Positions 23,454-42,174 of a stretch of DNA of 43,116 nt are shown one piece after another. Both the position numbers and the translations under genes were made by a program. This DNA is from Candidatus Bathyarchaeota archaeon (GTDB lineage Archaea > Thermoproteota > Bathyarchaeia > Bathyarchaeales > Bathycorpusculaceae): assembly GCA_963777155.1 (NCBI GenBank), contig CAVZPM010000003.1, positions 1 to 43,116 of the forward strand, read 5' to 3'. Under the pieces are notes generated by a model, which was given only the letters and a program-made list of their open reading frames with translations, was not told where the DNA came from and made no database searches. The stretch's first letter is position 1. The number at the start of each line of letters is the position of its first letter.

Positions 23454-23888
23454 ATGGGAAGAATTCTAATAAGATTCGACGAAGATCAAATAAAAGAGCC
23501 AATAGCTTCGCAAATCATCATCGAATACAAAGTACCGATGGGAATCTTGTCTGCGCACATTAACTCGAAGGGCGGAGAAATTCTTGCTGAAGTCCCAGAT
23601 GACATACTGGAAAAAGTCGTGAACGCTTTCCGCCAACGAGGCGTCTCGGTAACCGTACCTAAATTAATCGAGGTAGACAATGACAAATGCTTCAGTTGCG
23701 GCAGCTGCATTGCACTTTGCCCAGTGGAAGCCATTGGCTTAGCAAATGACTCCTCGGTGCAGTTTGATAAGGAGAAGTGCGTTGGCAGTACCTGCAGTAT
23801 CTGTGTGGACGCGTGTCCTGCCCGTGCAATCAAATCCATCAAACAAAACAGTCTTGAGAACCCAGTTAACAGGAAAAAGAAAAGTTGA
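23454..23888 (+). CDS. NIL domain + 2x[4Fe-4S] ferredoxin (MA1822-like partner)
   Basis: CFSCGSCIALCP and CVGSTCSICVDACP motifs; directly follows the DUF39 gene. Confidence 0.88.
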   Translation: MGRILIRFDEDQIKEPIASQIIIEYKVPMGILSAHINSKGGEILAEVPDDILEKVVNAFRQRGVSVTVPKLIEVDNDKCFSCGSCIALCPVEAIGLANDSSVQFDKEKCVGSTCSICVDACPARAIKSIKQNSLENPVNRKKKS

Positions 23889-24589
23889 CCCGGGAACTTT
23901 TCAAAGAACACTTTACCCACAAAGAATCTCAGTGCACAATAATTTCTGACCAGCAAGACGCCGTACAAGCCGCTAAAGAATCCATCCAACGCAACTACCT
24001 AGAGCTTGAATTCTACGTACGCGTCAATCCCAAGTTTCTATATACATTAATGCCTGTTCCAGCGCCTGAAAAGCCACTTGTTGCGCGGTTGATGGCTGAA
24101 GCTGCACTGAAGGCGGATGTTGGTCCAATGGCAGCAGTTGCTGGTGCGATAGCTGATTTGGCTATAGAAGATATGCTTCGTTTGGGCTGCGAGGTGGCGG
24201 TTGTGGAGGACGGTGGCGAAATATCTGCAAAATCGAACCAGCCTATTGATGCGGCAGTGGCGGCAGGAGATGAACCTCTCTCTAGACGCTTCGGTTTTCG
24301 ATTGGCAGAGTTCCCAATAGGTGTTGCTACAAGCTCGGGACGTTTTAGTCATGCGCTAAGCTTTGGAGATGCGGAGGCTGCAGTTGTTTTCTGCAAGAAC
24401 GCTACTTTAGCAGATGCGGCGGCAACGGCAGTTGGTAATGTGGTTAAAGGTGAAGATGGTCAAGCTGGAATTCAAGCGGGAATCAGCAGGGGATTGTCGA
24501 TTGATGGCGTTGAAGGTGTGCTTATACTTTATAAGGGGCAGGTTGGCACATCTGGGAAAATTCCACAGATAATCAGGGTAGAACCCTGA
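23885..24589 (+). CDS. UPF0280 / ApbE-like protein (COG2122, MA1715-like)
   Basis: VGPMAAVAGAIA, VEDGGEI, ATSSG..SHALSFG, LADAAATAVGN. Confidence 0.88.
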   Translation: MTRELFKEHFTHKESQCTIISDQQDAVQAAKESIQRNYLELEFYVRVNPKFLYTLMPVPAPEKPLVARLMAEAALKADVGPMAAVAGAIADLAIEDMLRLGCEVAVVEDGGEISAKSNQPIDAAVAAGDEPLSRRFGFRLAEFPIGVATSSGRFSHALSFGDAEAAVVFCKNATLADAAATAVGNVVKGEDGQAGIQAGISRGLSIDGVEGVLILYKGQVGTSGKIPQIIRVEP

Positions 24590-24710
24590 AGATATATGGC
24601 GACCGCTTTACAATTCTGGTTAGGTATCCTATTTGGCTCTAAATTTGCCTCCAAATCGACAAACAAGGTACGCAAGATAGTTAGAACCTAGTTGAACTGT
24701 AGCCTGAATC

Positions 24711-24727
24711 CGAAACGCTTATATTTT
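24711..24727 (+). promoter_or_regulatory. Archaeal BRE + TATA box of the aromatic operon
   Basis: CGAAACGC-TTATATTTT, with the TATA box starting 45 nt upstream of the leader ATG at 24764. Confidence 0.6.
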
Positions 24728-24763
24728 CAGTGACATGAAACATTCAACAGGTTTCGAAGCACA

Positions 24764-24850
24764 ATGTTCAATGCAGAAAAAATAGCCATAGGCAATGTAG
24801 CGCCGTTCCAGAGCTTCGACTACTACTTTTATTATTACTATTTTCCTTAA
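24764..24850 (+). CDS. Putative Tyr/Phe-rich leader peptide (28 aa, MFNAEKIAIGNVAPFQSFDYYFYYYYFP)
   Basis: Open frame from ATG 24764 to TAA 24850 with 6 Tyr and 5 Phe codons, eight of them consecutive (24821-24844), ending 59 nt before the first gene of the aromatic operon. Confidence 0.8.
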   Translation: MFNAEKIAIGNVAPFQSFDYYFYYYYFP

Positions 24851-24888
24851 GCCCAGGACTGAAAAAATTTTTAAGAAAAGTTCTGGGC
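24851..24888 (+). promoter_or_regulatory. 10-bp hairpin immediately after the leader stop codon
   Basis: GCCCAGGACT (24851-24860) pairs with AGTTCTGGGC (24879-24888) with one G-U pair; the 18-nt loop contains T5. Confidence 0.65.
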
Positions 24889-24909
24889 AAAACACGGGTG
24901 TAAAAACAA

Positions 24910-26169
24910 ATGGCAAAACTTACCTCTAACCAAACCATTGTCGTTAAATTTGGCGGTTCTAGCCTATCTGACCACGAGAGACTCTTAAAAGCCGTTATGG
25001 CAGTTGTGAACGAAGCCAAGAAAGGCACAAAAATCGCTGTAGTTGTCTCCGCCATGGGAAAAACAACCGATGTTCTCATGACGACGGCAAAGAACACCTC
25101 GAATGGAAAACTATCCAAACATGAGTTAGACGACATCCTTTCTATGGGTGAACGCACAAGCGTCCGCATCTTTGCCACCGCTCTTCGGAACAACGGCGTT
25201 GACGCGTGCTACTTCGACCCTATGGACAGTAAATGGCCAATCATAACTGACGACTTGTTCCAGAACGCTAACCCAATCGTCAAGGAATGTGAGAAAAACA
25301 TCAAGGAATACATTCTTCCACTCATCCAAAAAGGCACAATACCTGTAATCGCTGGTTTCGTGGGCAAAACCAAAGACGGCAAAATCACTACTTTGGGCAG
25401 AGGAGGAAGCGACACAACTGCATTCCTGCTGGCACAGGGAATAAACGCAAACCAAGTTGTCTTGGTAACTGACGCAAATGGCATAATGTCCAGCGACCCA
25501 AAAATCATCGCCTCACCTAAACTGCTCCCAACAATAGATGTAAACACACTCGTTGGCTTGGCGGATTCAGGTGCAAAATTCATACATAGCAAAGCCCTAA
25601 AATACAAACCAAAAGACATCGATGTTAAAGTCATCAGCAACGCTCATGGCGACTTAAGCCATGCTGGCACATTAATCACTGGTGGATTAGTCAGTGAACT
25701 CGATGCGGAAATCGCTCATCCAACCCCAGTAACAGAAATCACGGTAGTTGGAAACGGTATATCTGCAAATCCCGAGGTCATCACTGAGATGGTTGAGAAA
25801 GTTAAAGAAAACTCGCTTCTGCTTGGCATGTCCATGAATACTAACTCAATAATCCTTTATGTGCCCCAGGAGAAAAACATCGATGCCCTCTTCAACCAAA
25901 TCCACAATATAACTATTAGCAACAAAGAAACCATAGCTATGGCAGTCAAAAAAGACCTTGTCTTCATAAAAACCAGCGGTGTGGGCTTGGAGGAAACGCA
26001 TGGCATCATCGGAAAAATCAGCGAAGACCTAAGAGTCAACGGCATAAACATCTCAGGTATCCTGACCATCACTTCCAGCATTTTGCTGTTTGTAGATTGG
26101 AACGAGAAAGAGAAAGCATTAAAGTTAATTAAAAACTCACTCAACAACGTTAAGGTGGGAAAAGTATGA
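24910..26169 (+). CDS. Aspartate kinase, second divergent paralog heading the aromatic operon
   Basis: VVKFGGSSL, VVSAMGKTTD, SMGER, LGRGGSDTTA, two ACT-like domains; SD-like GGGTG at 24896-24900. Confidence 0.88.
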   Translation: MAKLTSNQTIVVKFGGSSLSDHERLLKAVMAVVNEAKKGTKIAVVVSAMGKTTDVLMTTAKNTSNGKLSKHELDDILSMGERTSVRIFATALRNNGVDACYFDPMDSKWPIITDDLFQNANPIVKECEKNIKEYILPLIQKGTIPVIAGFVGKTKDGKITTLGRGGSDTTAFLLAQGINANQVVLVTDANGIMSSDPKIIASPKLLPTIDVNTLVGLADSGAKFIHSKALKYKPKDIDVKVISNAHGDLSHAGTLITGGLVSELDAEIAHPTPVTEITVVGNGISANPEVITEMVEKVKENSLLLGMSMNTNSIILYVPQEKNIDALFNQIHNITISNKETIAMAVKKDLVFIKTSGVGLEETHGIIGKISEDLRVNGINISGILTITSSILLFVDWNEKEKALKLIKNSLNNVKVGKV

Positions 26170-26957
26170 ATGAAGGCAAAACACGCAGACTAAGAAGAAT
26201 CTTGCAGCAAGACAACCGCACAGTAATCGTGCCCATGGATCACGGTGTAACCGTGGGGCCAATCCAAGGCATAACCAACATGCAAACCATAACTGACCAG
26301 CTTGTCAAAGGTGGAGTTGACGCAATCCTTGTCCACAAAGGCATCGCCAAACGCGTCAATAATGGAAACACAGGATTAATCGTTATGTTGTCAGGCATGA
26401 CAAACCTTAGCCCCAACATAAACTCAAAAGTCCAAGTATGCAGCGTTCAGGAAGCCGTACGCATCGGAGCAGATGCGGTCTCAGTGCACGTGAACGTTGG
26501 TGCACAAGACGAGGACAAAATGCTCCAGACCTTGGGCAAAGTTGCTGAGGAATGTGAAGCCTTCGGCTTACCCCTCTTAGCAATGATGTACCCGCGTGGA
26601 CCAAAAATCCCAAACGAACACGCACCTGAAGTCGTAGCTCACGCCGCTAGAATCGGCGCAGAACTTGGCGCTGACATCATTAAAACAAACTACACAGGCA
26701 ACATCGAAACCTTCAAAGCAGTAATCGAAGGTTGCCCCGTCCCAGTTGTCATCGCGGGTGGACCAAAATGCAAATCTTTAGAAGAAGTGCTTCAAACCAC
26801 AAGTGACGCCCTGAAAGCAGGTGCAGCAGGACTTTCCATCGGGAGAAATGTGTTTCAATGTGACAGTCCAACACAAATTACAAAAGCGCTTTCCGCCATC
26901 GTGCATAAAGGTGCATCTGTCGAGCAGGCGCTTAAGATTCTCGGTGAAAAACGTTGA
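26166..26957 (+). CDS. aroA': 2-amino-3,7-dideoxy-D-threo-hept-6-ulosonate synthase (MJ0400 family)
   Basis: VPMDHG, LAMMYPRG, ELGADIIKTNY, VVIAGGPK, GRNVFQ; adjacent to DHQ synthase II. Confidence 0.9.
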   Translation: MNEGKTRRLRRILQQDNRTVIVPMDHGVTVGPIQGITNMQTITDQLVKGGVDAILVHKGIAKRVNNGNTGLIVMLSGMTNLSPNINSKVQVCSVQEAVRIGADAVSVHVNVGAQDEDKMLQTLGKVAEECEAFGLPLLAMMYPRGPKIPNEHAPEVVAHAARIGAELGADIIKTNYTGNIETFKAVIEGCPVPVVIAGGPKCKSLEEVLQTTSDALKAGAAGLSIGRNVFQCDSPTQITKALSAIVHKGASVEQALKILGEKR

Positions 26958-27994
26958 AAGAGCTCTGGCTTGAAATCCCCCAGGATGCTTCACTTCAGGA
27001 AAAGGAAGGTTTGCTTAGCCTTGCCCATGAAAACGTAGATGTTATTTTGGATAGTAACCAAGCCAGTAGCCGTCAAAGAAAAATTGAACTATTTTTTCTG
27101 ACGGATTTAAGCGAGAAAAAAATTGCTCAGATAAAAAAAGAGGGCAAAAAAACAGTTTTGAGAGTGTTAATCCAGGGTAAAGAAGACGAGAACAGGGCAG
27201 CTAAAGCCGCTGAACTTGGTGTAGACTACGTTATCATAAATTGTCAAGATTGGCGGGTAATTCCGCTTGAAAACCTGATAGCTAAGGGCAGGGGGAAAAG
27301 CACTTTAATCGCTGAAGTTTCCACTGCTGAGGATGCTAAGGTGGTTTTAGAAGCGCTTGAACTTGGCACAGACGGCGTTTTGCTAAAGACCTCAAACGCA
27401 AATGAGCTGGAAAAAACAATCAAAATTGTCAAGAATCAAATGCCAAAAATGGCTCTGATCTCAGCCAAAATCTTATCCATCAAACCCATTGGTTCAGGTG
27501 CACGAGTATGCGTTGACACTGTTGACTTGATGGTTCCGGGCGAAGGCATGCTTGTCGGATGCCAATCCGCAGGGTTCTTCCTTGTTGAAGCCGAGGTCAA
27601 CGAAAACCCCTATGTGCAATCCAGACCTTTCCGCGTGAACGCTGGACCAGCCTCCCACTACACCCTAACCTCTGTACAGGGCACACGGTACCTTTCAGAG
27701 TTGAAAGCTGGAGACGAAGTCTTAATCGTTAGCCGGGAAGGCAATGTCCGAATAACGAATCTAGGCAGATCCAAAATCGAGTTCCGTCCTCTAATCCTCA
27801 TCGAAGCGCAAGCAGACAACATCAAAATAAAAACTATTCTTCAAAACGCAGAAACCATCCGCCTAGTCACCCCCAAAGCTTCCAAACCAGTAACCGAACT
27901 AAAACCTGGTGACGAAGTTCTTGTGCATTTAGCGGCTAAGGGAGGAAGACACTTCGGTATATCTGTGCCTGAAGAAACGGTGATTGAAAAGTGA
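26954..27994 (+). CDS. aroB': 3-dehydroquinate synthase II (MJ1249 family)
   Basis: WRVIPLENLIA, RVCVDT, RPFRVNAG, LQNAETIRL, GRHFG. Confidence 0.93.
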   Translation: MKELWLEIPQDASLQEKEGLLSLAHENVDVILDSNQASSRQRKIELFFLTDLSEKKIAQIKKEGKKTVLRVLIQGKEDENRAAKAAELGVDYVIINCQDWRVIPLENLIAKGRGKSTLIAEVSTAEDAKVVLEALELGTDGVLLKTSNANELEKTIKIVKNQMPKMALISAKILSIKPIGSGARVCVDTVDLMVPGEGMLVGCQSAGFFLVEAEVNENPYVQSRPFRVNAGPASHYTLTSVQGTRYLSELKAGDEVLIVSREGNVRITNLGRSKIEFRPLILIEAQADNIKIKTILQNAETIRLVTPKASKPVTELKPGDEVLVHLAAKGGRHFGISVPEETVIEK

Positions 27995-28678
27995 CCTTGA
28001 GAATCTGTGTTTCTATTCTCCCAAAAAACAATACTGAAGCTATCGATCTTATTGAGAAGGCAGAGAACGCCAAAGCAGACCTAATCGAGGTAAGGCTTGA
28101 TTGTCTTGAGGAGTCACGGAACCTCAAAGACCTCGCCAAAAGCACAAAGCTACCTTTAATCGCCACAAACAAACTCAAAACTGAGCATGGGTTCTTTTCG
28201 GGAACAGAGACTGATCGTCAACGGACACTGCTAAACGCCGCCAAAAGCGGTTTCGAATATGTAGATGTTGACTTTTCAAGCTCAAAACGATCTGAAACAG
28301 TCGGCAAAATAAAAAACTTGAATGTGAAACCAATTATCTCATACCATAAATTCGACGGCGTCCTGACCGTTTCTGCAATGGAAAAAATATTGGACGAACA
28401 AATAGCCAGCGGAGCCAGCATCTGCAAAATCGTGCTCACCGCAAAACAAATCGAAGACAACCTACCTATCCTGAGCTTTGTTTCTTTTGCCTCAACCAAA
28501 GCCAAGCTGGTCTGCTTCTGCATGGGCGAACACGGCAAAACCTCAAGGCTCCTCTCACCAGCTTTTGGCGCATACTTCACCTTCGCCTCGCTTGAGCAAG
28601 GATAGTGAAACCGCCTCAGGACAGATGAATATAAGTGAAATGAGGACTGCTTACAGTCTATTGGGGATTAAGCATTGA
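27991..28678 (+). CDS. aroD: Type I 3-dehydroquinate dehydratase; +1 frameshift at ~28597-28601
   Basis: IEVRLD, IISYHKF, FCMGEHGKTSRL; the corrected C-terminus carries TASGQ (TAPGQ-like) and its stop overlaps the aroE start. Confidence 0.9.
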
Positions 28679-29532
28679 CTATAACGGGGAAGACGCGTGT
28701 TTGCGGAGTAATCGGTGAGCCTATAGAGCACACGCTGAGCCCCCTGATGCATAATGCGGCTTTCGAAGCCCTAAAACTTGATTATGTGTTCTTAGCGTTT
28801 AGAGTTAAACCTGCAGAAGTCGAGAGCGCGGTAAACGGTATGCGAGCGCTAAACATACGTGGCTTAAACATAACGATGCCGCATAAAAGTACAGTTATCA
28901 AACACCTTGACAGAGTAGATCTTTCAGCCCAAATCGTAAACTCTGTTAACACGGTTCTCAACAAGGAAAACCTACTGTTCGGTTTCAACACAGACGGCGT
29001 TGGCGCCCTTAAGGCACTTAAAGAAAACGGTGTCGAACTCAAGGGCAGAAAAGTTCTGTTGCTCGGCGCTGGAGGAGCGGCAAGAGCCATAGCTTACACG
29101 ATGGCTAAGGAAGCAGATGAACTAGCAGTTCTCAACCGAACTGTAAAACAAGCTCAAGCACTGGCGAAATTACTTGAAAAATCGTTTAACAAGAAAATAT
29201 CTACAGGTTCACTTTCGCCAACCGACATCCAGAGCAACCTCAAAGACTCAGACATACTCATCAACGCTACCTCAGTGGGTATGAAACCCAGAGCTGAAGA
29301 AAGTCCAGTCCCATTAAAATTGCTCCGCTCCAATCTAGCCGTGATGGATATAGTCTATAATCCGCTTGAAACCAAACTGGCCAAAGAGGCTAAGGCGGCA
29401 GGTGCCCGAGTGGTGAGTGGGGTTGAGATGTTGATTTATCAGGGAGCAGCTTCGTTTGAACTCTGGACAGGGAAATCAGCGCCAATTGAAGTTATGAGGC
29501 AGGCAGCGCTTAGCCACTTGCAGAAGGTGTAA
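28675..29532 (+). CDS. aroE: Shikimate dehydrogenase
   Basis: LSPLMHN, NITMPHK, NTDG, GAGGAARA, DIVYNPLET, MLIYQG. Confidence 0.95.
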   Translation: MTITGKTRVCGVIGEPIEHTLSPLMHNAAFEALKLDYVFLAFRVKPAEVESAVNGMRALNIRGLNITMPHKSTVIKHLDRVDLSAQIVNSVNTVLNKENLLFGFNTDGVGALKALKENGVELKGRKVLLLGAGGAARAIAYTMAKEADELAVLNRTVKQAQALAKLLEKSFNKKISTGSLSPTDIQSNLKDSDILINATSVGMKPRAEESPVPLKLLRSNLAVMDIVYNPLETKLAKEAKAAGARVVSGVEMLIYQGAASFELWTGKSAPIEVMRQAALSHLQKV

Positions 29533-29534
29533 AC

Positions 29535-30404
29535 TTGGCGGGGAAAGCTACAGCTATCGCTCATGGAGCTGCAACCATCGTCAACGCGATTGCCCTAGGA
29601 AAGGGTGCAGCTTTTGGAGTTGATTTGTGGACTAAAGCCGAAGTCAAACTAACTAACGAACCAGGGATAATTGAGGCAGAGGTTGTCTCTGATCCCAAAG
29701 AAAGCACGCTCCTAATAGAAAGAACAGTTACTAGAGTTCTGCAAAGGTTCAGTTTAGAGAAGAGTTTTGGCGCAAAAATCAAGACCACTTCAAACATTCC
29801 TATAGCTAAAGGTCTAAAGAGCAGTAGTGCAGCCGCAAACGCCTCAGCCCTCGCAACCACAGCGGCACTGCATAAAAAGCTCGATGACCTGGAAATCGTC
29901 AAAATCGGAGTTGAAGCCGCTTTTGACGCCAAAGTCACGGTTACGGGTGCCTTTGATGATTCATGCGCTTCCTACTTTGGCGGTGCAGTAATAACTGATA
30001 ATCTGAACCGGGAAATAATCAAGCAGTTACCGTTACCTGAAGACTTAACGGTGCTCTTTCATGTGCCACCCCAAAAAGCCTACACCATCAACTCCAACGT
30101 AATCAGATTACAAACCGTTAAACCATTAGTCCAAATCGCCTATGAGAAAGCGTTGGAAGGCAAAATCTGGGAAGCGTTAACTCTAAACGGCCTAATTTAT
30201 TCTTCAGCACAAAATCTCAATACAACAATCGCAGTTGACGCTTTGGTTGCTGGAGCCGTGGCTGCTGGGCTTTGCGGTAAAGGACCTGCCGTTTCCACAG
30301 TGGTTCCGAATGATAAGCTCGATTCAGTTAAGGCTGCCTTACAGAGATACGAGGGCGAAATTCTGTTGGCGCATTTGAACTGTGAGAAAGCAAAGGTGCT
30401 TTAG
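29535..30404 (+). CDS. aroK: Archaeal (GHMP-family) shikimate kinase
   Basis: GAATIVNAI, IPIAKGLKSSSAAANA, TGAFDD. Confidence 0.93.
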   Translation: MAGKATAIAHGAATIVNAIALGKGAAFGVDLWTKAEVKLTNEPGIIEAEVVSDPKESTLLIERTVTRVLQRFSLEKSFGAKIKTTSNIPIAKGLKSSSAAANASALATTAALHKKLDDLEIVKIGVEAAFDAKVTVTGAFDDSCASYFGGAVITDNLNREIIKQLPLPEDLTVLFHVPPQKAYTINSNVIRLQTVKPLVQIAYEKALEGKIWEALTLNGLIYSSAQNLNTTIAVDALVAGAVAAGLCGKGPAVSTVVPNDKLDSVKAALQRYEGEILLAHLNCEKAKVL

Positions 30405-30406
30405 CA

Positions 30407-31702
30407 TTGAATGTTACCATTAAGAAAACTGGAAAATTAAGCGGCCAAGTTTGTGCACCGCCATCTAAGTCTTATACACAGCGAATGGTTATCGCCGCTG
30501 CTCTAGCCAACGGCACCTCAAAAATATCGAATCCCCTTTTATCGGAGGATACTGAAGCCACCCTTAGAGTTGTTACTGCTTTAGGCGCCAAAGCGAAGGT
30601 TGCCGAAGGTTGCTGGACTATCGACGGAACGGTGCCGCTCAAGAGCACGAAAGAGTCAATCAACTGTGGCGAGTCTGGAGCAACTTTGCGTTTTATGATT
30701 CCAGTAGCTGCGTTGGCTAATAATTCTTCTACCCTGGTGTTTCAGGGATCATTTGAGAAGCGACCCGTGGAGCCTCTATTGGCGAGCCTCAAGGAACTAG
30801 GTGCCAAAGTCCATTCTTGCAAGCTTGGCGGAAAAGACGCCGTTTTTGTGTCGGGTGGCGGCATTACTGGGGGCGAGACCTCCATAGAGGGCAATGTTAG
30901 TTCACAGTTTATTTCTGGGTTGATGTTTGCCTGTCCAATGGCTCAGGTTGATACTGAAATAATGCTTACTTCGCCGTTGGAGTCGGTGGATTACGTCAAG
31001 ATGACTCAAGCTGTTCTTGTCGAGCACGGAGTTAAAGTGCCTGTACACGAAAATCACATACATATTCCCGCAGGGCAATCATATACGCCTTCAAACGGCA
31101 GAGTTCCAGGCGATTTTTCTTCCGCTGCCTTCCTCTTAGTTGCAGCAGCTATAACTTCCTCTAAAGTCCAAATAAACAACCTTGATTACAACACCCTTCA
31201 GGGCGACAAAGCAATCATTGGCATCCTAAAGAACATGGGTGTCAATGGGAAAGTCTGCGAAAACAGTATTGAGATTGAAGGCACAGGCAGCTTCCTCAAG
31301 CCCATAGAAGTTGACGCCAAGAATATTCCTGACCTTGTCCCAGCTATAGCCATTCTAGCATGCTACGCAAAGGGTACTTCCCACATTTTTGGTGCTCACA
31401 GGCTTAGACTTAAGGAATCCGACCGTCTCGAATCGCTTTACCTTGAGTTAACAAAGATGGGTGCACAAATCACCATCAATGACGACGGCTTAATTATAGA
31501 GGGTGGTTCACCCTTACACGGCGCAGTTATAGATCCACATAACGACCACCGAATCGCCATGGCATGCGCCGTCGCAGCTTTAATTGCAGATGGAGAAACC
31601 ACAATCCAAAACGCCGAGTGCGTCAGAAAGTCTTATCCGCAGTTCTTCACTCATCTAAAACAAATAGGAGCAGATGTAGTTGGCGGGAAATTCGATAGGT
31701 AA
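30407..31702 (+). CDS. aroA: 3-phosphoshikimate 1-carboxyvinyltransferase (EPSP synthase)
   Basis: PPSKSYTQR, GESGATLRF, SSQFISGL, RLKESDR, DHRIAMA, KSYPQF. Confidence 0.95.
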   Translation: MNVTIKKTGKLSGQVCAPPSKSYTQRMVIAAALANGTSKISNPLLSEDTEATLRVVTALGAKAKVAEGCWTIDGTVPLKSTKESINCGESGATLRFMIPVAALANNSSTLVFQGSFEKRPVEPLLASLKELGAKVHSCKLGGKDAVFVSGGGITGGETSIEGNVSSQFISGLMFACPMAQVDTEIMLTSPLESVDYVKMTQAVLVEHGVKVPVHENHIHIPAGQSYTPSNGRVPGDFSSAAFLLVAAAITSSKVQINNLDYNTLQGDKAIIGILKNMGVNGKVCENSIEIEGTGSFLKPIEVDAKNIPDLVPAIAILACYAKGTSHIFGAHRLRLKESDRLESLYLELTKMGAQITINDDGLIIEGGSPLHGAVIDPHNDHRIAMACAVAALIADGETTIQNAECVRKSYPQFFTHLKQIGADVVGGKFDR

Positions 31703-32784
31703 AGAATTCGTTGTTACATCGTTTGGCGAGAGCCATGGCAAAGTTGTCGGCGTCGTTGTGGATGGTTGCCCAGCTGGTTTGCCGCTTTCTGAAGCCGATT
31801 TTCAGGAGGAGCTTGACCGCAGGATTCCCGCTGAACCCAAGATTGTTTCTGCAAGGATCGAAAAAGACAAAGCCCAAATCCTCTCAGGTGTCTTCAACGG
31901 ATTAACTACAGGTGCCCCAATCGCTTTGACGGTTGAAAACAAGGAAACCCAGTCCAGCGACTACGAAGCCATCAAGGACCTGCCAAGACCTGGACATTCA
32001 GATTATCCAGCCCGTGTTAGGTACGGCGGCTTTAACGATTACCGCGGTGGAGGACGCTTCTCAGGAAGGGTCACAGTCGCACTTATCATGGCTGGCACCA
32101 TAGCCAAAAAGCTGCTCGGCAGATATGACATTGACGTTTTAGCGTACACCCGGTCGATTAGCAAAATTAAAACCGATAAAAAATTTAGTGCTGCAGAAAT
32201 CCGCAAAAACAAAAATGCGGCTGCAACCAGATGCCCCGACTTAGCCTGCGCCGAGAAGATGGAGGAAGCCATAATCAATGCGCGAAAAGAAGGCGAGAGC
32301 CTTGGCGGTGTCATCGAATGCATTGCACTCAACATGCCTCCGGGAATCGGCGAACCGCTATTTGATTCGTTGGATGCTGATTTAGCTAAGGCAGTGTTTG
32401 CGGTTCCCGCGGTGAAAGGCGTCGAGTTTGGAGCTGGGTTCGGGGCTACAGAGTTGACGGGTTCACAGAATAACGATGCTTTCCTTCTAAAGAACGGCAA
32501 AGTTGTTACCTCAACGGAGCATGCAGGCGGAATTTTAGGCGGTTTATCCAGCGGCATGCCCATCATGATTAGTGTGGCAATTAAGCCAACACCGTCAATT
32601 GCTAAGGAACAGAAAACCGTTAACCTCGCCTCGATGGAGAACGCAGCCATAAACGTAAAGGGAAGACACGACCCTTGCGTAGTTCCTAAAGCCGTGCCCG
32701 CCATCGAAGCAGCAGTTGCTATAACCTTAGCTCGACCACATGATCCGCGCAGGCTACATACCGAAAGTCCTCAAGGAGCACTAA
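31680..32784 (+). CDS. aroC: Chorismate synthase; +1 frameshift at ~32729-32733
   Basis: FGESHG, PRPGHSD, GGGRFSGR, GGILGG, GRHDPC; the corrected end reads DHMIRAGYIPKVLKEH* (TAA 32782-32784). Confidence 0.93.
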
Positions 32785-32788
32785 ATAC

Positions 32789-33051
32789 ATGGATGAAATC
32801 CCCAAGCTAAGAAAACAGGTAGATGCAATCGACGACCAAATCCTAGCCGCCCTCTGTGAACGGGTTAAGGTTTGCAGAGCAATCGGAGAAGCCAAGAAGA
32901 AACAGGGCAAACCCGTTCGAGATGTATCCCGGGAGAATGAGGTCTTACACGAGAATCAGCAGAGAAAGCTGCTATATTTGGTTTAAATGGGAGCCAGATT
33001 GAAGCAGTTTACCGCGAAATAGTTAATATGTGCAGTGTCGTTCAAGAATAA
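32789..33051 (+). CDS. Chorismate mutase (AroQ class); two +1 insertions near 32945-32961
   Basis: LRKQVDAIDDQILAALCER...K...D.SRE; the corrected end reads EKAAIFGLNGSQIEAVYREIVNMCSVVQE* (86 aa). Confidence 0.88.
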
Positions 33052-33075
33052 AGAACTCTTAACGGGAGTCCACAA

Positions 33076-34155
33076 ATGCTCTACGAAATAAACGAGAAAG
33101 CCCTCAAACTTGAAAGTGAAGGAAAAAAGATAATTCGCTTAAACCTCGGCGACCCAGACATAGCTACGCCTCCAGAAATCGTGGAAGCTGCTTACGCTTC
33201 GATGAAGGAAGGCAAAACCAAGTATTCCTCCTCATACGGAGAGCTGAAGCTACGACAGAAAATCGCTGAGGAACACGGCGTTAAAGCAGAAAACGTCGTG
33301 ATTACGCCTGGTTCAAAATGGGCCATTTTCGCTACGATGTTTTTGATGCTTAAAAACGGCGGCAACGTAATCATCCCCACACCATACTGGACAGCTTACG
33401 ACTTAATCGCAAAGAGCTTCGGCGCTAAAACCAAGTTATTGCGGACCGAAATGGAAGATGGTTGGAAAATTGACCTTGCCGAGCTTGAACGTTTGATTGA
33501 TAAAGACACAAAAATGATTATCCTCAATAACCCAAACAACCCTACAAGCAAAGTCATAGATACAAAAACCTTGGACGGCGTCGTCGAATTAGCCAACAAA
33601 AAAGGCGTCACTATCCTTTCCGACGAAGTTTATGGGGCAATAAGCTTTGTGAAAACCAAAAGCATCCTCGACTATGAAGGCGAATGCAAACACATCCTCT
33701 CCAATGGTTTCTCAAAGACCTTCAGCATGACAGGTTGGCGCATCGGCTACCTGGTAGCCAACAAAATGTTCATCGACAACGTAACTAAACTCAACCAGAT
33801 CACAATCAACAACATACCCGTCTTCATCCAAGACGCTGCACTCAAAGGCCTAGAGCTTCACAAACAAATAGCGTCTGCCATTAAAGCTAAGTACCAACGG
33901 CGTGCAGATCTGGCAAGCACCAAACTCTCAGCGGCAGGTTTCAAATTTACCAAGCCTGAAGCGCCCTTCTACGTTTTTCCCAAGCTACCGGGTTTAGACG
34001 GCGACAAATTTACTTTAGAACTACTAGACAAAGGGGTAGCTGTGGCTCCCGGCTCATCTTTTGGAGACTATCGCGAACATTTCCGCATCAGTTTGACAGT
34101 ACCAGACGACCAAATAGAAGAGGGTCTGGATAGAATCTGCGAGGCGGCTCGATGA
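33076..34155 (+). CDS. Class I PLP aminotransferase, probably aromatic by context
   Basis: NNPNNPT, SDEVY, FSKTFSMTGWRIG; lies between chorismate mutase and tyrA. Confidence 0.88.
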   Translation: MLYEINEKALKLESEGKKIIRLNLGDPDIATPPEIVEAAYASMKEGKTKYSSSYGELKLRQKIAEEHGVKAENVVITPGSKWAIFATMFLMLKNGGNVIIPTPYWTAYDLIAKSFGAKTKLLRTEMEDGWKIDLAELERLIDKDTKMIILNNPNNPTSKVIDTKTLDGVVELANKKGVTILSDEVYGAISFVKTKSILDYEGECKHILSNGFSKTFSMTGWRIGYLVANKMFIDNVTKLNQITINNIPVFIQDAALKGLELHKQIASAIKAKYQRRADLASTKLSAAGFKFTKPEAPFYVFPKLPGLDGDKFTLELLDKGVAVAPGSSFGDYREHFRISLTVPDDQIEEGLDRICEAAR

Positions 34156-35024
34156 GGATTGCCGTAATCGGCGCAGGGAAAATGGGCGTTTGGTTCGCCA
34201 AGTTTTTTCTCTCCAAAGATTACGATGTAGTATTAGCAGACAGAAAAAAAGACAAGCTTATAGAACTTGGCGAGTTACCTGTTGATTTAACCACAAACTT
34301 CCAAGAAGCCGTTTCTGACGCTGACCAAATTTACCTATGTGTATCTATAAACGCTATCGAAGAAATCGCCAAAACCATCGGTCCTGTCTTGCATGAGGGA
34401 CAAGTGGTCATGGATATTGCCTCAATCAAGGAAGCTCCCGTTAAAACAATGCATCAGTATATCAAAGGTGCCACCGTCTTGGGTACGCACCCGGTTTTTG
34501 GGCCAGGAAGCAACGGTGTCAAACACAAAGCCTATGTTCTGACTCCAACTAACCCTGAAGAGCAAAAGTTTGCTGAAGAGTTCAAAACATGGCTGGAAAA
34601 AGAAGAAGCCCACGTTTTCGTAATGACGCCTAAGAAACATGATGAACTCATGTCAGTTGTGCTGGGGTTACCACACTTCTTAGGACTAGTTGCATGCGAA
34701 ACCTTGCTGGAACAGAAGAATTTATCTGAAACCAAAAAAGTGGCAGGTACAACCTACCGGATGTTGTTCACGTTGGCAGAAGCTACGGCGCTAGAAACCC
34801 CAGACCTTTACGCGGCAGTGCAGACGAACCTACAAGAACTGGGCAAAATCGAGGACATCTTCATGGCCAAAGCCCAAGAACTGCTCACCCTGATAAAAAA
34901 CAAAGACCAAAAAGCAATCGTCGAACGCATGGAACAACTAAAGAAGAAATTGGCATCTGTTGATAGTGACTTCGCCAAAAGCTACGATGTCATGTACAGG
35001 ATGCTTCAATCCACCGAAGAGTAG
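34152..35024 (+). CDS. tyrA: Prephenate/arogenate dehydrogenase
   Basis: GAGKMG, DIASIK, HPVFGP, HDELMSVVLGLPH. Confidence 0.93.
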   Translation: MRIAVIGAGKMGVWFAKFFLSKDYDVVLADRKKDKLIELGELPVDLTTNFQEAVSDADQIYLCVSINAIEEIAKTIGPVLHEGQVVMDIASIKEAPVKTMHQYIKGATVLGTHPVFGPGSNGVKHKAYVLTPTNPEEQKFAEEFKTWLEKEEAHVFVMTPKKHDELMSVVLGLPHFLGLVACETLLEQKNLSETKKVAGTTYRMLFTLAEATALETPDLYAAVQTNLQELGKIEDIFMAKAQELLTLIKNKDQKAIVERMEQLKKKLASVDSDFAKSYDVMYRMLQSTEE

Positions 35025-36407: not shown

Positions 36408-37232
36408 TTAAAAAGGAGTAACAGCTTTGGGGTATGAGCCCAAGATTTTGACAAAAATTGCGTATTTCTCCAATGCTTTAAGGGCTTCTGCGCATTTCTG
36501 TTCAGTTCGGTGCCCTTCAAAATCCAAGTAAAAATTGTATTCCCACGCGGTCTTCTTGGTGGGCCGCGATTCGATTCTGGTCAGGTTGATTTTTCTTTTG
36601 GCAAATTCTCCCAATGCACCGTAGAGTGAGCCAGGCTCATGTTTAGCTGAGAAGATTATGCTAGTTTTGTCTTTGCCTGTTGGTGTAGAGTCTTGCTGGG
36701 ATAGTACGAAGAAGCGGGTATAGTTTTCTTTGTTGTCAGCTATGTCACGTGCGAGAATTTGCATGCCATAGATTTCTGCGGCTCGCTCGCTTGCGATGGC
36801 TGCGGCATTTGTGAGTTTTTGTTCTTTTATAATTTTGACGCTACCTGCTGTGTCGTAGGCTGGGACGATTTCCCACTTTGCCTTCTCCAAGTAACTGCGA
36901 CATTGCGCCAGCGCTTGGGGATGCGAGTAAACGGCTTTGATTTGACTCATAGCTGTGCCAGGGTTCACAATTAAGCAATGTGCTATTCTAACTATGACTT
37001 CTCCGCAGACTTTCAGGTCATAATTGAAGAATAGATCGTAGTTTTGGTTGATGCTACCTTCAAGCGAGTTCTCCACTGGCACTGCGCCAGCTACAACCTC
37101 GCCAAGTTTCACCGCTTCGAAGACGTCGCGGAAGTCTCTGCAGGGCTTAGCTTGTACTTTTGAGCCGAAGAACTGGTAGACTGCAGATTCGCTGTAGGCG
37201 CCGGGTTCGCCTTGGAAGGCTACGGTTTTCAC
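36408..37232 (-). CDS. pheA: Prephenate dehydratase with ACT domain
   Basis: FQGEPGAYS, PVENSLEGS, SHPQALAQC, NYTRF, LTRIESRP. Confidence 0.95.
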   Translation of the reverse strand: MKTVAFQGEPGAYSESAVYQFFGSKVQAKPCRDFRDVFEAVKLGEVVAGAVPVENSLEGSINQNYDLFFNYDLKVCGEVIVRIAHCLIVNPGTAMSQIKAVYSHPQALAQCRSYLEKAKWEIVPAYDTAGSVKIIKEQKLTNAAAIASERAAEIYGMQILARDIADNKENYTRFFVLSQQDSTPTGKDKTSIIFSAKHEPGSLYGALGEFAKRKINLTRIESRPTKKTAWEYNFYLDFEGHRTEQKCAEALKALEKYAIFVKILGSYPKAVTPF

Positions 37233-38770
37233 TTTTTGTTTCCCTGCTTGTTGTGGTTCTTTAGCAGGAGCTTGTTTATACCATTTATCATTGCTTCTAC
37301 ACTCGCCATAACAATGTCTTCTCTGGCTGCTCGCGCGGAGACGATGTTGCCTTTTTCATCTTCGACTTTTATGACTACTTCAGCCACTGCGTTTGAGCCG
37401 CCTGTTATGGCTTCCAGTCGGTATTCGCTGAGTCTGATGTTTTCGATGCTGCTTGTTAATTTTTGGATTGCTTTTAGTACTGCATCTACTGGTCCAACGC
37501 CTGTTTCTGCTGCAACGTATTCTTTGCCATTCAAGACCAAACGCACGGAAGCGGTTGGAATAACTTTGATGCCTGTAACCACTGCCATATCGCAGAGGTC
37601 AACGATTTTTTCTTCCCCAATCACTTCACCCATGACAGCTGATGTTAACGCTATCAAGTCTGCGTCGGTCACCATTTTGCCTTTATCGCCTAAATCTTTG
37701 ACTCTTTGAACAATTTCTTTGATTTGCTCTTCGGTGGGGTGGATTCCGATTTCTTCGAGTTCAGCTTTGATGCCTCGGGTTCCGGCCAGTTTGCCCGCCA
37801 CAAGTTTCCTTGTGCGACCGACTAATTCGGGGTTTATGGGTTCGAAGGTTAATGGTTTCTCTGTTACTCCACGTGTATGGATGCCTGATTCGTGGGCAAA
37901 CGCGTTTTCGCCGACAATTGCCTTGTTAGCTTGCACAGTTATACCTGTTAGGGACGCGACCATTCTTGAGGTGCTGTAAAGCAATCGGGTATTGACACCT
38001 GTTTTGTACTTGTAGATAATATCCAGCGCCATCACGACTTCTTCGAGTGCAGCGTTGCCTGCTCGTTCGCCTAAGCCGTTTACGGCGACGTGTACTTGGG
38101 CTGCTCCTGCTTCAACTGCTGCGAGGGAGTTTGCGACTGCTAAGCCGAAGTCGTCGTGACAATGGGTACTTATCGGCACTGTGATGACTTTTTTGAGTTC
38201 TTCAATAAGTTTGATTGTTGTTTTGGGAGTCATGATACCGACCGTGTCGGGAACGTTTAGGCTATCCATGCCTGCGTCTTGTGCGGCTTTGCAGACTTGT
38301 TTTAGGAAAGGCATCTCTGAACGAGTGGCATCCATCGGTGAAAACTCACATTTTACCCCGTGCTTTTTCACGTACTCAATCGAGTCAACCGTAGAAGCCA
38401 GTACCTGTTCAGGTGTCAAGTTTACTGCATACTTCATCTGGACTTGAGAGGTTGGGATGAAAACGTGGACTAAGTCAACGTCACAATCTAGCGCTGCGTT
38501 AATGTCGCCTCTTGTTGCTCGGGACAAGGCGCAGATTTCGGGAGTTAAGCCTAATTTAGCAATATCTCGGACTACTTTTTTTTCGCCATCAGAGGAACTC
38601 GGAAACCCAGCTTCGATGACATCAACACCCAGTTTGCTGAGTTGGTGTGCAATCTCAATCTTGTCGTCAGCTGTTAAAGAAACTCCGGGGGTTTGTTCCC
38701 CGTCTCTTAATGTGGTGTCAAAAATACGGATTCGGGTGGATGTTTTATTCGGGGTCATGCTTTCAGCCAC
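37229..38770 (-). CDS. leuA: 2-isopropylmalate synthase / (R)-citramalate synthase family
   Basis: DTTLRDGEQTPG, HCHDDFGLAVAN, GERAGNA, C-terminal allosteric domain. LeuA versus CimA cannot be resolved by eye. Confidence 0.8.
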   Translation of the reverse strand: MAESMTPNKTSTRIRIFDTTLRDGEQTPGVSLTADDKIEIAHQLSKLGVDVIEAGFPSSSDGEKKVVRDIAKLGLTPEICALSRATRGDINAALDCDVDLVHVFIPTSQVQMKYAVNLTPEQVLASTVDSIEYVKKHGVKCEFSPMDATRSEMPFLKQVCKAAQDAGMDSLNVPDTVGIMTPKTTIKLIEELKKVITVPISTHCHDDFGLAVANSLAAVEAGAAQVHVAVNGLGERAGNAALEEVVMALDIIYKYKTGVNTRLLYSTSRMVASLTGITVQANKAIVGENAFAHESGIHTRGVTEKPLTFEPINPELVGRTRKLVAGKLAGTRGIKAELEEIGIHPTEEQIKEIVQRVKDLGDKGKMVTDADLIALTSAVMGEVIGEEKIVDLCDMAVVTGIKVIPTASVRLVLNGKEYVAAETGVGPVDAVLKAIQKLTSSIENIRLSEYRLEAITGGSNAVAEVVIKVEDEKGNIVSARAAREDIVMASVEAMINGINKLLLKNHNKQGNKK

Positions 38771-39801
38771 TTTTGACGGTTAACGCCGCAGCAATGGCTT
38801 CTGCCATGCCAACGGTCGTGGTTTTGCCGCCGCAGTCTGGAACAGATTGACCATTACGTAAAGCGTATATTACTCCGTTCTCTATGGCTGCACCTGCTTG
38901 TAAGCATTTCTTGTCGCCGTATTTTTCTCCTAGCCACTCAAGCATCATTTTTGCGGAGAGTATCATGGAGATTGGGTTGGCGGTGTGTTTTCCTGCTCGG
39001 TTTGGTGCTGAGCCGTGGATGGGTTCAAAGAGGCCGAAGTTATCGCCTACGTTTGCGCCTGGAGCCATGCCTAAGCCGCCGATTTGCTGTGCTGCTTCGT
39101 CGCTAAGGATATCGCCAAACATGTTGCATGTGCAGAATACATCGAATATTTCTGGTTCTTTGATTAGCCGCATGGATGCTGCGTCAACATAGAGTTCGTT
39201 GAATTTGATGTCTGGGTACTGTTTTGCGGTTTCGCGGCAAACGCTAGCGAATAAGCCGTCGGTTACGCGCATGACGTTGGCCTTGTGGATGGCTGTGACT
39301 TTCTTTTTGCCGTTTCTTAGGCGTGCGATTTCGAAGGCTTTTTTGGCTATGCGTTCGCAGTTTTTACGTGTGATAACTCGCATGCAGATAGTTGTGTCGT
39401 TGCCGATGGTGAATTCTAAGCCTTTGTAAACGTCCTCAGTGTTTTCACGGACAAAGTACATGTCGATGTCTGGGTGGGCAACTTTGACGTTGGGGTAGGC
39501 TTTGAGGGGGCGAAGGTTAGCGTACAGGTCAAACATGACTCTTAGCTTTACTATGGTGTCGGCTGCAGTTTCGCCTACTGGTCCCTTTAGACAAGCATGG
39601 GAGTTCTTGATTTTATCCACTGTATCTGCTGGGAGTGCGATCGCCTAGCGTCTCAAGGGCGATGTCGCCTGCGGGGGCATCAATGATTTTGAATTTTAAA
39701 GCGAATTTTTTCTCTACTGCTTGTAGGACTTTAAGCGTGGCTTCGGATAATTCTGGTCCGATGCCGTCGCCTTGGATTAAGGATATTTTATATTCAGTCA
39801 T
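38763..39801 (-). CDS. leuB: 3-isopropylmalate dehydrogenase family; +1 frameshift at ~39641
   Basis: GDGIGPE (39613..39801) joins RENTED, HKANV, NMFGDILSD, FEPIHGSAP (38763..39620). Confidence 0.9.
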
Positions 39802-40298
39802 TTCTTCATTTTTCTCCGTAAATTCTCTATTAAGCCGCCATCCGTCAAGATTTCTATGATGAAGGTTGGCAGTTTTTCGACTTGGAATTTTTTGCCGTTT
39901 GACAAGTTCTCTATCTTTCCAACCGCAAAGTCTACGGCTAATTCATCGCCTGTCTCCACCGCGCTTGATATGCCTTTGCACTCGATTACGGGCAAACCGA
40001 TGTTGATTGCGTTACGGAAGAAGATCCTTGCAAAGGACTCAGCTATAACGCACTTCACACCCGAATACTTCAATGCCAGTGGTGCTTGTTCTCTGCTGGA
40101 ACCACAGCCGAAGTTTTTGCCTCCGACTAGGATTACTCCCTTCTGGGCTTTTTTAGGGAACTCTACGTCTAAACCTGCCAACGCATGCTTTGCCAGCTCG
40201 TTGGGGTCAACCAGAGTCATGTATTGGCCTGGTAGAATGACATCGGTGTCGATGTTGTTACCGAATTTTATGGCTTTGGCTTTGATTTTGTTTTGCAT
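39798..40298 (-). CDS. leuD: 3-isopropylmalate dehydratase small subunit
   Basis: NIDTDVI, NFGCGSSREQA, SFARIFFRN. Confidence 0.92.
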   Translation of the reverse strand: MQNKIKAKAIKFGNNIDTDVILPGQYMTLVDPNELAKHALAGLDVEFPKKAQKGVILVGGKNFGCGSSREQAPLALKYSGVKCVIAESFARIFFRNAINIGLPVIECKGISSAVETGDELAVDFAVGKIENLSNGKKFQVEKLPTFIIEILTDGGLIENLRRKMKK

Positions 40299-41566: not shown

Positions 41567-41661
41567 TTTCGATCTAAATCCTTTAATTAATTCTAATATA
41601 GGAAAGATAATGGGAATTTTTAAAAGAAAGCTATTAAGTATTTCCGCGTCGTGAAAGGTGT

Positions 41662-42174
41662 TTATTGGTCGATTTTTATCGATTTTGCGCCTCGCGCTAG
41701 AGCTGTGATGCCTGTTCTTGCCAATTCGAGTATGCCGAAGGATTTCATGAGGTTGAGGAACGCATCGATTTTGTCGGGTGTACCTGTGATTTCTACGGTT
41801 AAGCTGTCGGTGGAGACGTCGATGATTCTGCCGCGGAAGACTTCGACGAAGTTGATGATGTCGCTGCGTTCTTTGCTATCTTTAACTTTGACTTTTATGA
41901 GTGAGAGTTCACGCATGACAAAGTTGCCGCTTTCGAGTTCGCTGACTTTGAGGACGTCTATTTGTTTGGCGACTTGTTTGACTACTTGGTCGATGGTTTT
42001 TTCGTCTTCGTTGACGGTTATGGTCATGCGAGCGAGACCTGGCTGCTCTGTGGGACCTACCGTGATGCTTTCGATGTTAAAGTTTCGGCGGCGGAACAGG
42101 TTGGCGATGAGGTGTAGTACACCAGGTTTGTTTTCCACTAGCACTGATATTACTTTGGTTTTTCCCGCTTCCAT
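41662..42174 (-). CDS. ilvH: Acetolactate synthase small (regulatory) subunit
   Basis: ENKPGVL, RRNFNIESITV, ELARTG. Confidence 0.93.
   Translation of the reverse strand: MEAGKTKVISVLVENKPGVLHLIANLFRRRNFNIESITVGPTEQPGLARMTITVNEDEKTIDQVVKQVAKQIDVLKVSELESGNFVMRELSLIKVKVKDSKERSDIINFVEVFRGRIIDVSTDSLTVEITGTPDKIDAFLNLMKSFGILELARTGITALARGAKSIKIDQ

Follow-up and report, generated by a model that had tools for sequence, protein, structure and literature searches.

We describe a candidate regulatory leader in a DNA stretch of 43,116 nucleotides (nt) from Candidatus Bathyarchaeota archaeon (contig CAVZPM010000003.1), referred to here as the window. Between a promoter box and the first gene of an aromatic amino acid operon lies a 28-codon upstream open reading frame (uORF), which ends in a run of tyrosine and phenylalanine codons and is followed directly by a hairpin, P2. 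The open reading frame (ORF), its frame, its Tyr/Phe bias, the hairpin and a U-run are conserved among Bathyarchaeia, and such a Tyr/Phe leader, conserved and in frame, is very probably both genuine and a regulator. We hold it as very likely that the ORF is translated and selected for its Tyr/Phe codons, and consider it probable that the leader regulates the operon in response to Tyr/Phe. The reading we favour, to which we give an even chance, is that the ORF acts as a translated regulatory leader sensing the supply of charged tRNA-Tyr and tRNA-Phe, with the position of the ribosome gating P2. That the output would be antitermination by P2 at the U-run is a tentative proposal. The elements of the leader, in window positions, are as follows.

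24711–24727, plus strand: promoter box CGAAACGCTTATATTTT, like a B recognition element (BRE) and TATA box; near-invariant in aligned relatives as CCGAAA(C/T)GCTT(A/T)TAT
24753–24760, plus strand: P1a, TTCGAAGC, 5' arm of a predicted helix (inverted repeat, minimum-energy fold) at the transcript's predicted 5' end, immediately ahead of the uORF ATG
24764–24850, plus strand: leader ORF MFNAEKIAIGNVAPFQSFDYYFYYYYFP, 28 codons and a stop (ATG at 24764, TAA at 24848–24850)
24813–24819, plus strand: P1b, GCTTCGA within AGC TTC GAC (S-F-D), 3' arm of the same inverted repeat, directly before the Tyr run
24821–24844, plus strand: putative sensor codons TAC TAC TTT TAT TAT TAC TAT TTT (Y Y F Y Y Y Y F), codons 20–27
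24851–24888, plus strand: P2 hairpin GCCCAGGACT ... AGTTCTGGGC, arms 24851–24860 and 24879–24888, 10 pairs including one G·U
24868–24872, plus strand: T5 tract in the P2 loop, a candidate archaeal termination or pause signal
24896–24900, plus strand: GGGTG, Shine–Dalgarno (SD)-like sequence of the aspartate kinase gene, 8 nt after P2 and outside the hairpin

The promoter box is separated from the uORF start codon by 44 nt, and TATA-like words in this genome are most frequent 40–59 nt before start codons. The transcription start is predicted at ~24748–24752, 12–16 nt before the uORF ATG. The uORF closes with eight Tyr/Phe codons followed by CCT TAA, in a genome whose long ORFs use Tyr at 3.5% and Phe at 4.2% of codons, with TAT as the minority Tyr codon (38.5%). 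The window's own assembly, a 2.29-Mb metagenome-assembled genome (MAG) that is 90.6% complete, contains 53,911 ORFs of 10–70 amino acids (aa) in six frames, and the uORF is the only one with eight Tyr/Phe in a span of nine residues. Seven in nine occur in 15 ORFs of the same set, mostly Phe-rich products of T-rich DNA. Tandem Repeats Finder reported no repeat in 24650–24950, and the codon run is therefore not a microsatellite. This bears out a preliminary description of the DNA, made from the sequence alone, which had judged the run to be no simple microsatellite; the promoter box, 28-codon uORF, hairpin and operon it had named are likewise all in place. A search with aragorn found tRNA-Phe(GAA) and no tRNA-Tyr in the window's assembly, the latter probably reflecting an assembly gap.

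The Y Y F Y Y Y Y F run precedes an operon whose final genes are chorismate mutase, an aminotransferase and tyrA. The preliminary description had read this operon as extending from aspartate kinase to tyrA, and NCBIfam and Pfam matches (CM_2 for the mutase) support the assignment.

24910–26169, plus strand: aspartate kinase, first gene of the operon, ATG at 24910 (NCBIfam NF005159, 388 bits, above cut-off)
26166–35024, plus strand: remaining operon genes by NCBIfam and Pfam, namely aroA' (2-amino-3,7-dideoxy-D-threo-hept-6-ulosonate (ADH) synthase), aroB' (3-dehydroquinate (DHQ) synthase II), aroD, aroE, archaeal shikimate kinase, aroA, aroC, chorismate mutase, aminotransferase and tyrA (prephenate dehydrogenase)
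32789–32986, plus strand: the chorismate mutase gene within this operon, a 65-aa ORF (Pfam CM_2)

An aspartate kinase at the operon head makes sense because the archaeal aroA'/aroB' route, the 6-deoxy-5-ketofructose 1-phosphate (DKFP) pathway, draws on aspartate semialdehyde. Kinase orthologues with 49–91% identity head the same operon in relatives, and the gene order kinase, aroA', aroB' is kept in most related loci, while the upstream neighbour gene differs between them. Among five relatives that have no kinase orthologue, four have no ADH synthase match and the fifth has one only below cut-off; the leader therefore tracks the pathway. As a separate observation, four loci (L025, L044, L046 and L047) carry ~1 kb extra, one more gene, between kinase and aroA'/aroB'; the pathway would accommodate an aspartate-semialdehyde dehydrogenase there, which is a candidate for this gene.

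The leader recurs wherever the orthologous kinase was found in Bathyarchaeia. A 22–29-codon ORF with a Tyr/Phe-rich tail precedes this gene at 49/49 loci (47 distinct, with two identical pairs). The kinase orthologue is present in 24/24 genomes of the same genus and in three genomes from other families of the order (E ≤ 1e-130), and at all 27 of these same-order loci a small ORF with an aromatic C-terminus ends 44–77 nt before the kinase. A scan of one genome per GTDB species located the leader at 22/22 loci labelled Bathyarchaeia, with kinase identity of 49–91%. No aromatic small ORF precedes three loci with a kinase paralogue of 35–39% identity, and no convincing leader is seen at 11 loci with kinase identity ≤41% (L053–L062 and L087, of which L062 is labelled Bathyarchaeota). 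A phylum-wide sample of aroA' loci revealed further leaders in L131, where the peptide ends in NPYYYYYYYCFF, and L136, both belonging to family f14, which falls in another order of the class, and in L142. In family f11 the kinase gene is divergent from aroA' yet has a leader; that of L130 (YTEYFFTYLSGYYMTF) is clear and that of L128 weak. The other aroA' loci of this sample showed none in their 1.5-kb upstream flanks, which often fall short of the operon head. The L131 leader has seven consecutive Tyr codons (TAT TAC TAC TAT TAC TAT TAT), and its ATG lies ~16 nt past a TATA-like box, a spacing at which its transcript may be leaderless. An in-frame Tyr/Phe-rich uORF with both synonymous and non-synonymous variation thus precedes the orthologous operon across Bathyarchaeia, the outcome for which the preliminary description had proposed a comparison of relatives. 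Separately, L056, labelled Micrarchaeota, has a 28-codon ORF MIYVVMMTLAKEFGGYLPFWFFSFSYGH with six aromatics in nine residues, 105–192 nt upstream of an aspartate kinase gene of 40% identity; it is either a possible leader outside Bathyarchaeia or a product of chance.

The alignment of these loci argues strongly for a translated ORF. The P1a word is retained in 38 loci, and in all 38 the next ATG downstream shares the frame of the Tyr/Phe stretch; this is the clean frame count, the ATG of the nine loci without the P1a anchor having been picked by frame. The peptide has 22–29 residues in 46/47 loci, L044 being cut by its contig end. In-frame stops occur in 0/46 leaders, compared with 29/46 and 41/46 in the other two frames. 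In the N-terminal half almost no similarity is left, and gaps in the coding part are of 3 or 6 bases. Across the 46 leaders Tyr and Phe together account for 62% of the last 12 codons and for 6.8%, the proteome level, of the rest; they are also frequent at positions -2 (89%) and -3 (85%) from the stop. The bias persists despite unrelated nucleotide sequence in L026, L027, L047, L049, L050, L052 and L131, and the aromatic stretch of L023, L024, L038, L051 and L052 includes Trp as well. Synonymous variation appears as TAC/TAT at alignment columns 19, 20, 24 and 26 and as TTT/TTC, and replacements within the stretch are among Y, F, G, C, S, H, R and W. A Pro codon comes last in 17/46 leaders, with N, Y, T and Q among the other final residues, and the motif S-F-D/E-Y-x-F-Y-Y is conserved in the aligned leaders. 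Not all sites vary freely. In the P1b segment AGC TTC GA, the synonymous sites of AGC (36/38 loci) and TTC (38/38) are frozen, which points to a constraint at the nucleotide level, and TTT TAT TAT is nearly frozen (36, 35 and 31 of 38 loci) although TAT is the minority codon.

Nothing but P2 is conserved between the sensor codons and the operon, and P2 adjoins the leader stop. Its 5' arm begins at the first base past the stop codon, its 18-nt loop contains A6 and then T5, and the segment from stop to kinase folds at -17.2 kcal/mol. The hairpin starts within -3 to +5 nt of the base after the stop in 47/47 distinct loci. In the 42 aligned loci, 89.6% of the cells at P2 positions are paired, above all 500 shuffles, and sliding the partner by 1–3 columns lowers this to 25–51%. 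Within the nine basal pairs one-sided changes yield G·U or U·G without exception, never A·C, and two-sided changes occur at pair 18-50 (one G-C) and pair 20-48 (A-U, U-A). A pattern search of 401 genomes of the class found P2 in 66, including 36/40 further genomes of the genus, and the new 5'-arm variants (GGC, AGC) all form G·U against an unaltered 3' arm. In distant families, stems of unrelated sequence stand in P2's place next to the leader stop. These G·U and compensatory substitutions, together with the unrelated stems at the same place, fit a structure formed in RNA rather than a palindrome in DNA. The window's genome has a single copy of the full hairpin, and P2 was rejected as a repeated element on that ground.

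A second conserved pairing, P1, would join the predicted 5' end of the transcript to the codons before the Tyr run. P1 is a perfect 7-bp inverted repeat, TCGAAGC (24754–24760) with GCTTCGA (24813–24819). Over 38 loci its seven pairs are ~96% paired, with ~16 cells carrying one-sided changes, all G·U or U·G; five unpaired cells derive from the misaligned rows L001 and L007 or from a C·A in L002, and an eighth pair, G-C, appears in two loci where a U is deleted. Shuffling gives P1 little support because the helix hardly varies. The pattern is nonetheless consistent with an RNA helix, and P1 and P2 do not compete in the fold.

The U-run lies mostly inside P2 rather than behind it. T-runs of at least five are found within the hairpin in 26/47 loci, against 1.9 expected from shuffled loops, and runs of at least four in 36/47 (6.8 expected), at a near-constant position of +15 to +19 from the hairpin base. 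A run of at least four T within 12 nt after the hairpin is present in only 3/47 loci. Six loci of more distant lineages (L025, L050, L052, L130, L131 and L136) have a terminator-like arrangement of a strong hairpin, then T4–T6, then the SD. In the f14 loci L131 and L136, the first 40 nt after the stop hold a stop-adjoining hairpin with arms AGCTTCGAAACC / GGGTTTCGAAGCT, followed by T5 and GGAGG; as an aside, these arms contain GCTTCGAA/TTCGAAGC, the palindromic word that forms P1 in the window's genus.

Several other searches for structure gave null results. The whole leader RNA of the window is not unusually stable (z = -0.58 versus shuffles), a sigma-70/terminator scan returned no hairpin-plus-T-run on the plus strand, Rfam 15 had 0 matches at E ≤ 1 on either strand of 24550–25000, and no conserved alternative or antiterminator pairing was found. 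Three candidate pairings were set aside. The N-terminal codons can pair with the Tyr/Phe run in the window (a 22-nt inverted repeat, 73% complementary), a pairing that is not conserved (mean z +0.17, with 2/46 loci below -1.64) and was treated as chance. Sequestration of the kinase SD was rejected on partition-function folds with ribosome-masked positions, in which the mean accessibility of SD/ATG over 47 loci is 0.50 with the ribosome at the stop and 0.50 with the ribosome at the Tyr run (0.43 in free RNA). Masking of the U-run by pairing inside P2 was dropped, as the U-run pairs at 0.29 with P2 folded versus 0.55 with the 5' arm masked.

RNA-library contigs from three studies bridge the 3' part of the leader, P2 and the start of the kinase gene: X15 at 24813–25024, X19 at 24802–24969, and X17 with two contigs at 24827–24906 and 24877–25028. 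Small parts of the window are present in six RNA-library runs, of which four were aligned, as contigs; shares this small say nothing about habitat. These contigs agree with co-transcription through P2, with DNA possibly present in the libraries. The four runs have no cover at 24300–24706 and 24729–24801 and are uninformative on the transcription start. One X19 contig joins 24707–24728 to 24805–24853 through 77 other letters and therefore comes from a relative.

The mechanism that we infer from these features, including translation, stalling, the sign of the response and the termination step, would run as follows. Transcription would begin ~12–16 nt before the ATG, and a ribosome would load while RNA polymerase is still transcribing the leader. 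With Tyr/Phe plentiful, the ribosome would reach the stop. A ribosome footprint reaches ~12–13 nt beyond the first base of the A-site codon, so that a ribosome at the stop would cover 24851–24860, ~10 nt past the stop and the whole 5' arm, and P2 could not fold. With Tyr/Phe scarce, the ribosome would halt at the first hungry codons, 4–9 before the stop, leaving P2 free to fold once its 3' arm is made. Folded P2 would then oppose premature termination or cleavage at the adjacent U-run, to which RNA polymerase and aCPSF1/FttA would respond as a terminator signal of archaeal type, independent of a hairpin. Expression of a biosynthetic operon should rise on starvation, and folded P2 must therefore favour expression; this sign is the opposite of that of a bacterial terminator hairpin. 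A terminating ribosome would soon leave, so the difference in P2 would be transient, which suits a co-transcriptional decision. Archaeal terminators are described in a passage of PMC8716108 as runs of 4–7 U, recognised with aCPSF1, for which a hairpin is not strictly needed, and part of the Discussion of PMC11616081 proposes FttA as a Rho-like monitor of transcription–translation coupling. The aCPSF1/FttA model TIGR03675 scores above cut-off in 5/5 near-complete relatives. The element might be the first archaeal leader-peptide attenuator, in which a stop-adjoining, ribosome-gated hairpin, folded on starvation, suppresses a hairpin-independent U-run terminator; as part of the same tentative reading, such a minimal two-part attenuator could be an adaptation to archaeal termination and not a bacterial inheritance.

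A number of points weigh against this mechanism. The U-run is unpaired in the loop (mean pairing 0.29), so that P2 must protect it by topology and not by pairing, and polymerase passes the loop U-run before the P2 3' arm exists, so that P2 cannot affect termination exactly there; in addition, 11/47 loci have no run of at least four T inside the hairpin. A ribosome stalled at the Tyr/Phe codons at -2 and -3 would itself cover P2. The f14 hairpin with its T5 resembles a bacterial terminator and fits the proposed model less well. TIGR03675 is not above cut-off in the window's own assembly, where the best match has 255.7 bits and internal stops, probably a MAG gap. Part of the conservation of the leader, at P1b and TTT TAT TAT, is at the nucleotide level and goes beyond what coding alone would explain, and the counts of loci with a leader overstate independence because the loci are relatives. 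The contigs, which are the sole RNA data, show no start, end or level.

The strongest competitor keeps the same Tyr/Phe-sensing leader and gives it a post-transcriptional output, the position of the ribosome altering translation initiation of the kinase or stability of the mRNA. In its variants P1 and P2 would be barriers to a 5'-3' exonuclease, or the freed U-run would pair with the A-rich spacer before the kinase ATG. We consider this unlikely. P1 stands at the predicted 5' end, the end of P2 is only 2–8 nt from the kinase SD in most loci, and when the 5' arm is masked the U-run pairs more, often with the A-rich SD–ATG spacer; in L026, L027, L050 and L052 a CUCC-like word at the end of the 3' arm is complementary to the SD. 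Yet the modelled SD/ATG accessibility is equal for both ribosome positions, and the alternative helices are weak: in most of the loci shown they reach -2 to -8 kcal/mol, and -13.4 in L052, versus ~-15 to -24 for P2 in the same loci. The terminating ribosome would also be gone within seconds, leaving a difference that only a kinetic, co-transcriptional step could easily use.

Less probable still is an attenuator of bacterial type, in which P2 and a U-run would form a terminator and a ribosome on the last Phe/Tyr codons or the stop would melt the 5' arm as an antiterminator. The six distant loci with the classical hairpin–T4–T6–SD shape are what it expects, and so is the abundance of Tyr/Phe at -2 and -3. 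A final Pro, as in 17/46 leaders, slows peptide release when it stands before the stop. Against this, the window and most relatives have no U-run after the hairpin (3/47 loci), and a passage of PMC8716108 describes archaeal termination without need of a hairpin. A bacterial-type terminator hairpin also gets the wrong regulatory sign. A Tyr-starved ribosome would halt first at -9 to -4, leaving the hairpin intact and expression lower, and a coupled ribosome at the stop would block the hairpin just when amino acids are plentiful. The mechanism is probably not the bacterial one. The preliminary description had interpreted the region as a ribosome-mediated attenuator on the strength of a layout that defines such elements in bacteria; the conserved in-frame Tyr/Phe leader upholds one part of that interpretation, and the bacterial terminator/antiterminator layout is not supported, since the window's hairpin has no 3' U-run and no antiterminator is conserved.

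The remaining explanations are each very improbable. A TnaC-like arrest peptide would sense free tyrosine or phenylalanine in the ribosome tunnel and hold the ribosome at or near the stop. TnaC has 24 residues with a conserved Trp and Asp and a final Pro, and senses tryptophan; the conserved S-F-D/E-Y-x-F-Y-Y motif, the constant length of 22–29 residues and the final Pro of 17/46 leaders recall it. In the distant families listed above, however, the motif dissolves and the Tyr/Phe richness stays, the frozen synonymous sites of S-F-D point to RNA pairing (P1b) and not to residues, and the final residue is variable (P, N, Y, T, Q). We give as little credence to an incidental ORF, with the conserved parts being non-coding: an operator or RNA-binding-protein site (P1, P2), or a second promoter in the A/T tract of the P2 loop. 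Where kinase identity is ~59% or more, the P1 and P2 arms show almost no sequence change between loci, TTTTTAA is among the heptamers enriched before genes, and the loop T-tract lies 43 nt before the kinase ATG, inside the usual 40–59 nt. The frame nevertheless survives indels with its ATG always in frame, the Tyr/Phe richness outlasts complete nucleotide turnover, and the one-sided changes in P2, all G·U on the plus strand and none A·C, fit an RNA element rather than a palindrome in DNA. As a TATA box the sequence TTTTTTG(A/G)G, found in many loop tracts, is poor; RNA-library contigs traverse P2 from upstream, and Rfam holds no match at E ≤ 1. Finally, a small aromatic-rich peptide with a function of its own (a membrane peptide or modified-peptide precursor), merely co-transcribed, would account for a conserved ORF of constant length with a hydrophobic, aromatic C-terminus, but hardly for an N-terminal half that varies freely while only the Tyr/Phe content of the tail is kept, for its constant place after the promoter and ahead of this single operon, regardless of which gene lies upstream, or for the lack of visible modifying-enzyme genes nearby in the window.

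Beyond the leader and its operon, the genes next to them were also inspected. Directly upstream is a 234-aa ORF at 23885–24589 (plus strand) with no Pfam family at E ≤ 0.01, itself preceded by an ORF with NIL domain and 4Fe-4S ferredoxin at 23454–23888; the pair recurs before the leader in only some relatives. The pheA gene (Pfam PDT, 36690–37223, minus strand) is outside the aromatic operon, as the last gene of a convergent ilvB-ilvN-leuC-leuD-leuB-leuA operon (36408–43116) whose ilvB extends past the contig end at 43116 and has its start beyond the contig. In four same-genus relatives (L117–L120; G014, G001, G003 and G008) a conserved small ORF MRDRHLNSWDRRV lies ~90–165 nt upstream of ilvB, downstream of a TATA-like box, with the direct repeat GGGATCGTC present twice. 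Not being rich in Leu, Ile or Val, it was rejected as an ilvB leader peptide, and it is more likely a protein-binding or RNA element.

Elsewhere in the genome, other single-residue runs before long ORFs (best H5, C6 and M4) were discarded, having no cognate pathways: they precede a nitroreductase, two ORFs with no Pfam family and an acyl-CoA synthetase/GNAT fusion. At 72813–72851 on the minus strand of contig C11 in the window's assembly (G000), a small ORF, MGRSCCCYCCCN, has a TATA-like box upstream and, 70 nt downstream, a 167-aa ORF with no Pfam family; the small ORF's TGT/TGC run also reads as a Leu run in another frame. The region upstream of trpE has no Trp-rich ORF. It does hold two TGTAC(A) words, 5 nt apart (L115:725–750, contig C34 of G000), which resemble the TRP boxes bound by TrpY in methanogens; trpE itself is split over several frames in the assembly.

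As for precedent, the preliminary description had known of no established amino acid leader attenuator in archaea. Our search of full-text literature found none either, subscription journals and supplements lying outside its reach (the supplementary uORFs of PMC11456600 and PMC10117724 may bear on the question). The terms attenuation, attenuator and leader peptide are all absent from a review of archaeal coupling (PMC8116511), passages of archaeal ribosome-profiling papers treat uORFs as a possibility only, and a statement in the introduction of a tool paper asserts uORF regulation in archaea with no example there (PMC10219788). The leader is a concrete, widely conserved candidate for amino acid sensing through transcription–translation coupling in archaea, and would aid the annotation of regulation in Bathyarchaeia, which are uncultured and abundant in soils, peat and sediments. 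With its mutable parts, namely start codon, Tyr/Phe codons, stop position, hairpin arms and U-run, it is also an element with which cross-talk between archaeal ribosome, RNA polymerase and aCPSF1/FttA can be tested.

Among known systems, the closest at the sensor end are E. coli pheL-pheA, trpL and hisL, which likewise have a short ORF in the 5' leader, a run of end-product codons near its 3' end, a variable N-terminus and structured RNA between leader and first gene. E. coli pheL ends in Phe-Pro-stop, and pheL genes are described in part of PMC3082878 as short, with runs of Phe codons. Unlike these, the window and most relatives have neither a terminator hairpin with 3' U-run nor a conserved alternative antiterminator pairing, the hairpin adjoins the stop so that a ribosome there melts it, and the archaeal host has another RNA polymerase and other termination factors. 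In E. coli tnaC (with Rho) and Salmonella mgtL/mgtA, the position of the leader ribosome decides the action of a termination factor just past the stop with no intrinsic terminator. Here, too, ribosome position on a short leader ORF would gate a factor, the analogous aCPSF1/FttA found in 5/5 relatives; the factor is another one, its putative role purely our deduction, the signal is a U-run and not a C-rich rut site, and the sign must be opposite to that of tna because the operon is biosynthetic. In ermC, cat and cmlA translational attenuation, a leader peptide is again followed by a hairpin, which there contains the SD of the regulated gene and is remodelled by the stalled ribosome, whereas the kinase SD lies outside P2 and its modelled accessibility is independent of ribosome position. 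Leaderless short poly-cysteine ORFs of mycobacteria are presented in parts of bioRxiv 10.1101/834739 as amino-acid-responsive attenuators that head polycistronic transcripts. As far as that account goes, they share with our leader the codon runs for one amino acid and a short or absent 5' untranslated region (L131 being possibly leaderless), and differ in being bacterial and reading Cys where ours is archaeal and reads Tyr/Phe. In summary, the leader departs from bacterial attenuators at its output end, which has no hairpin-plus-U terminator and no antiterminator, and is like them at its sensor end.

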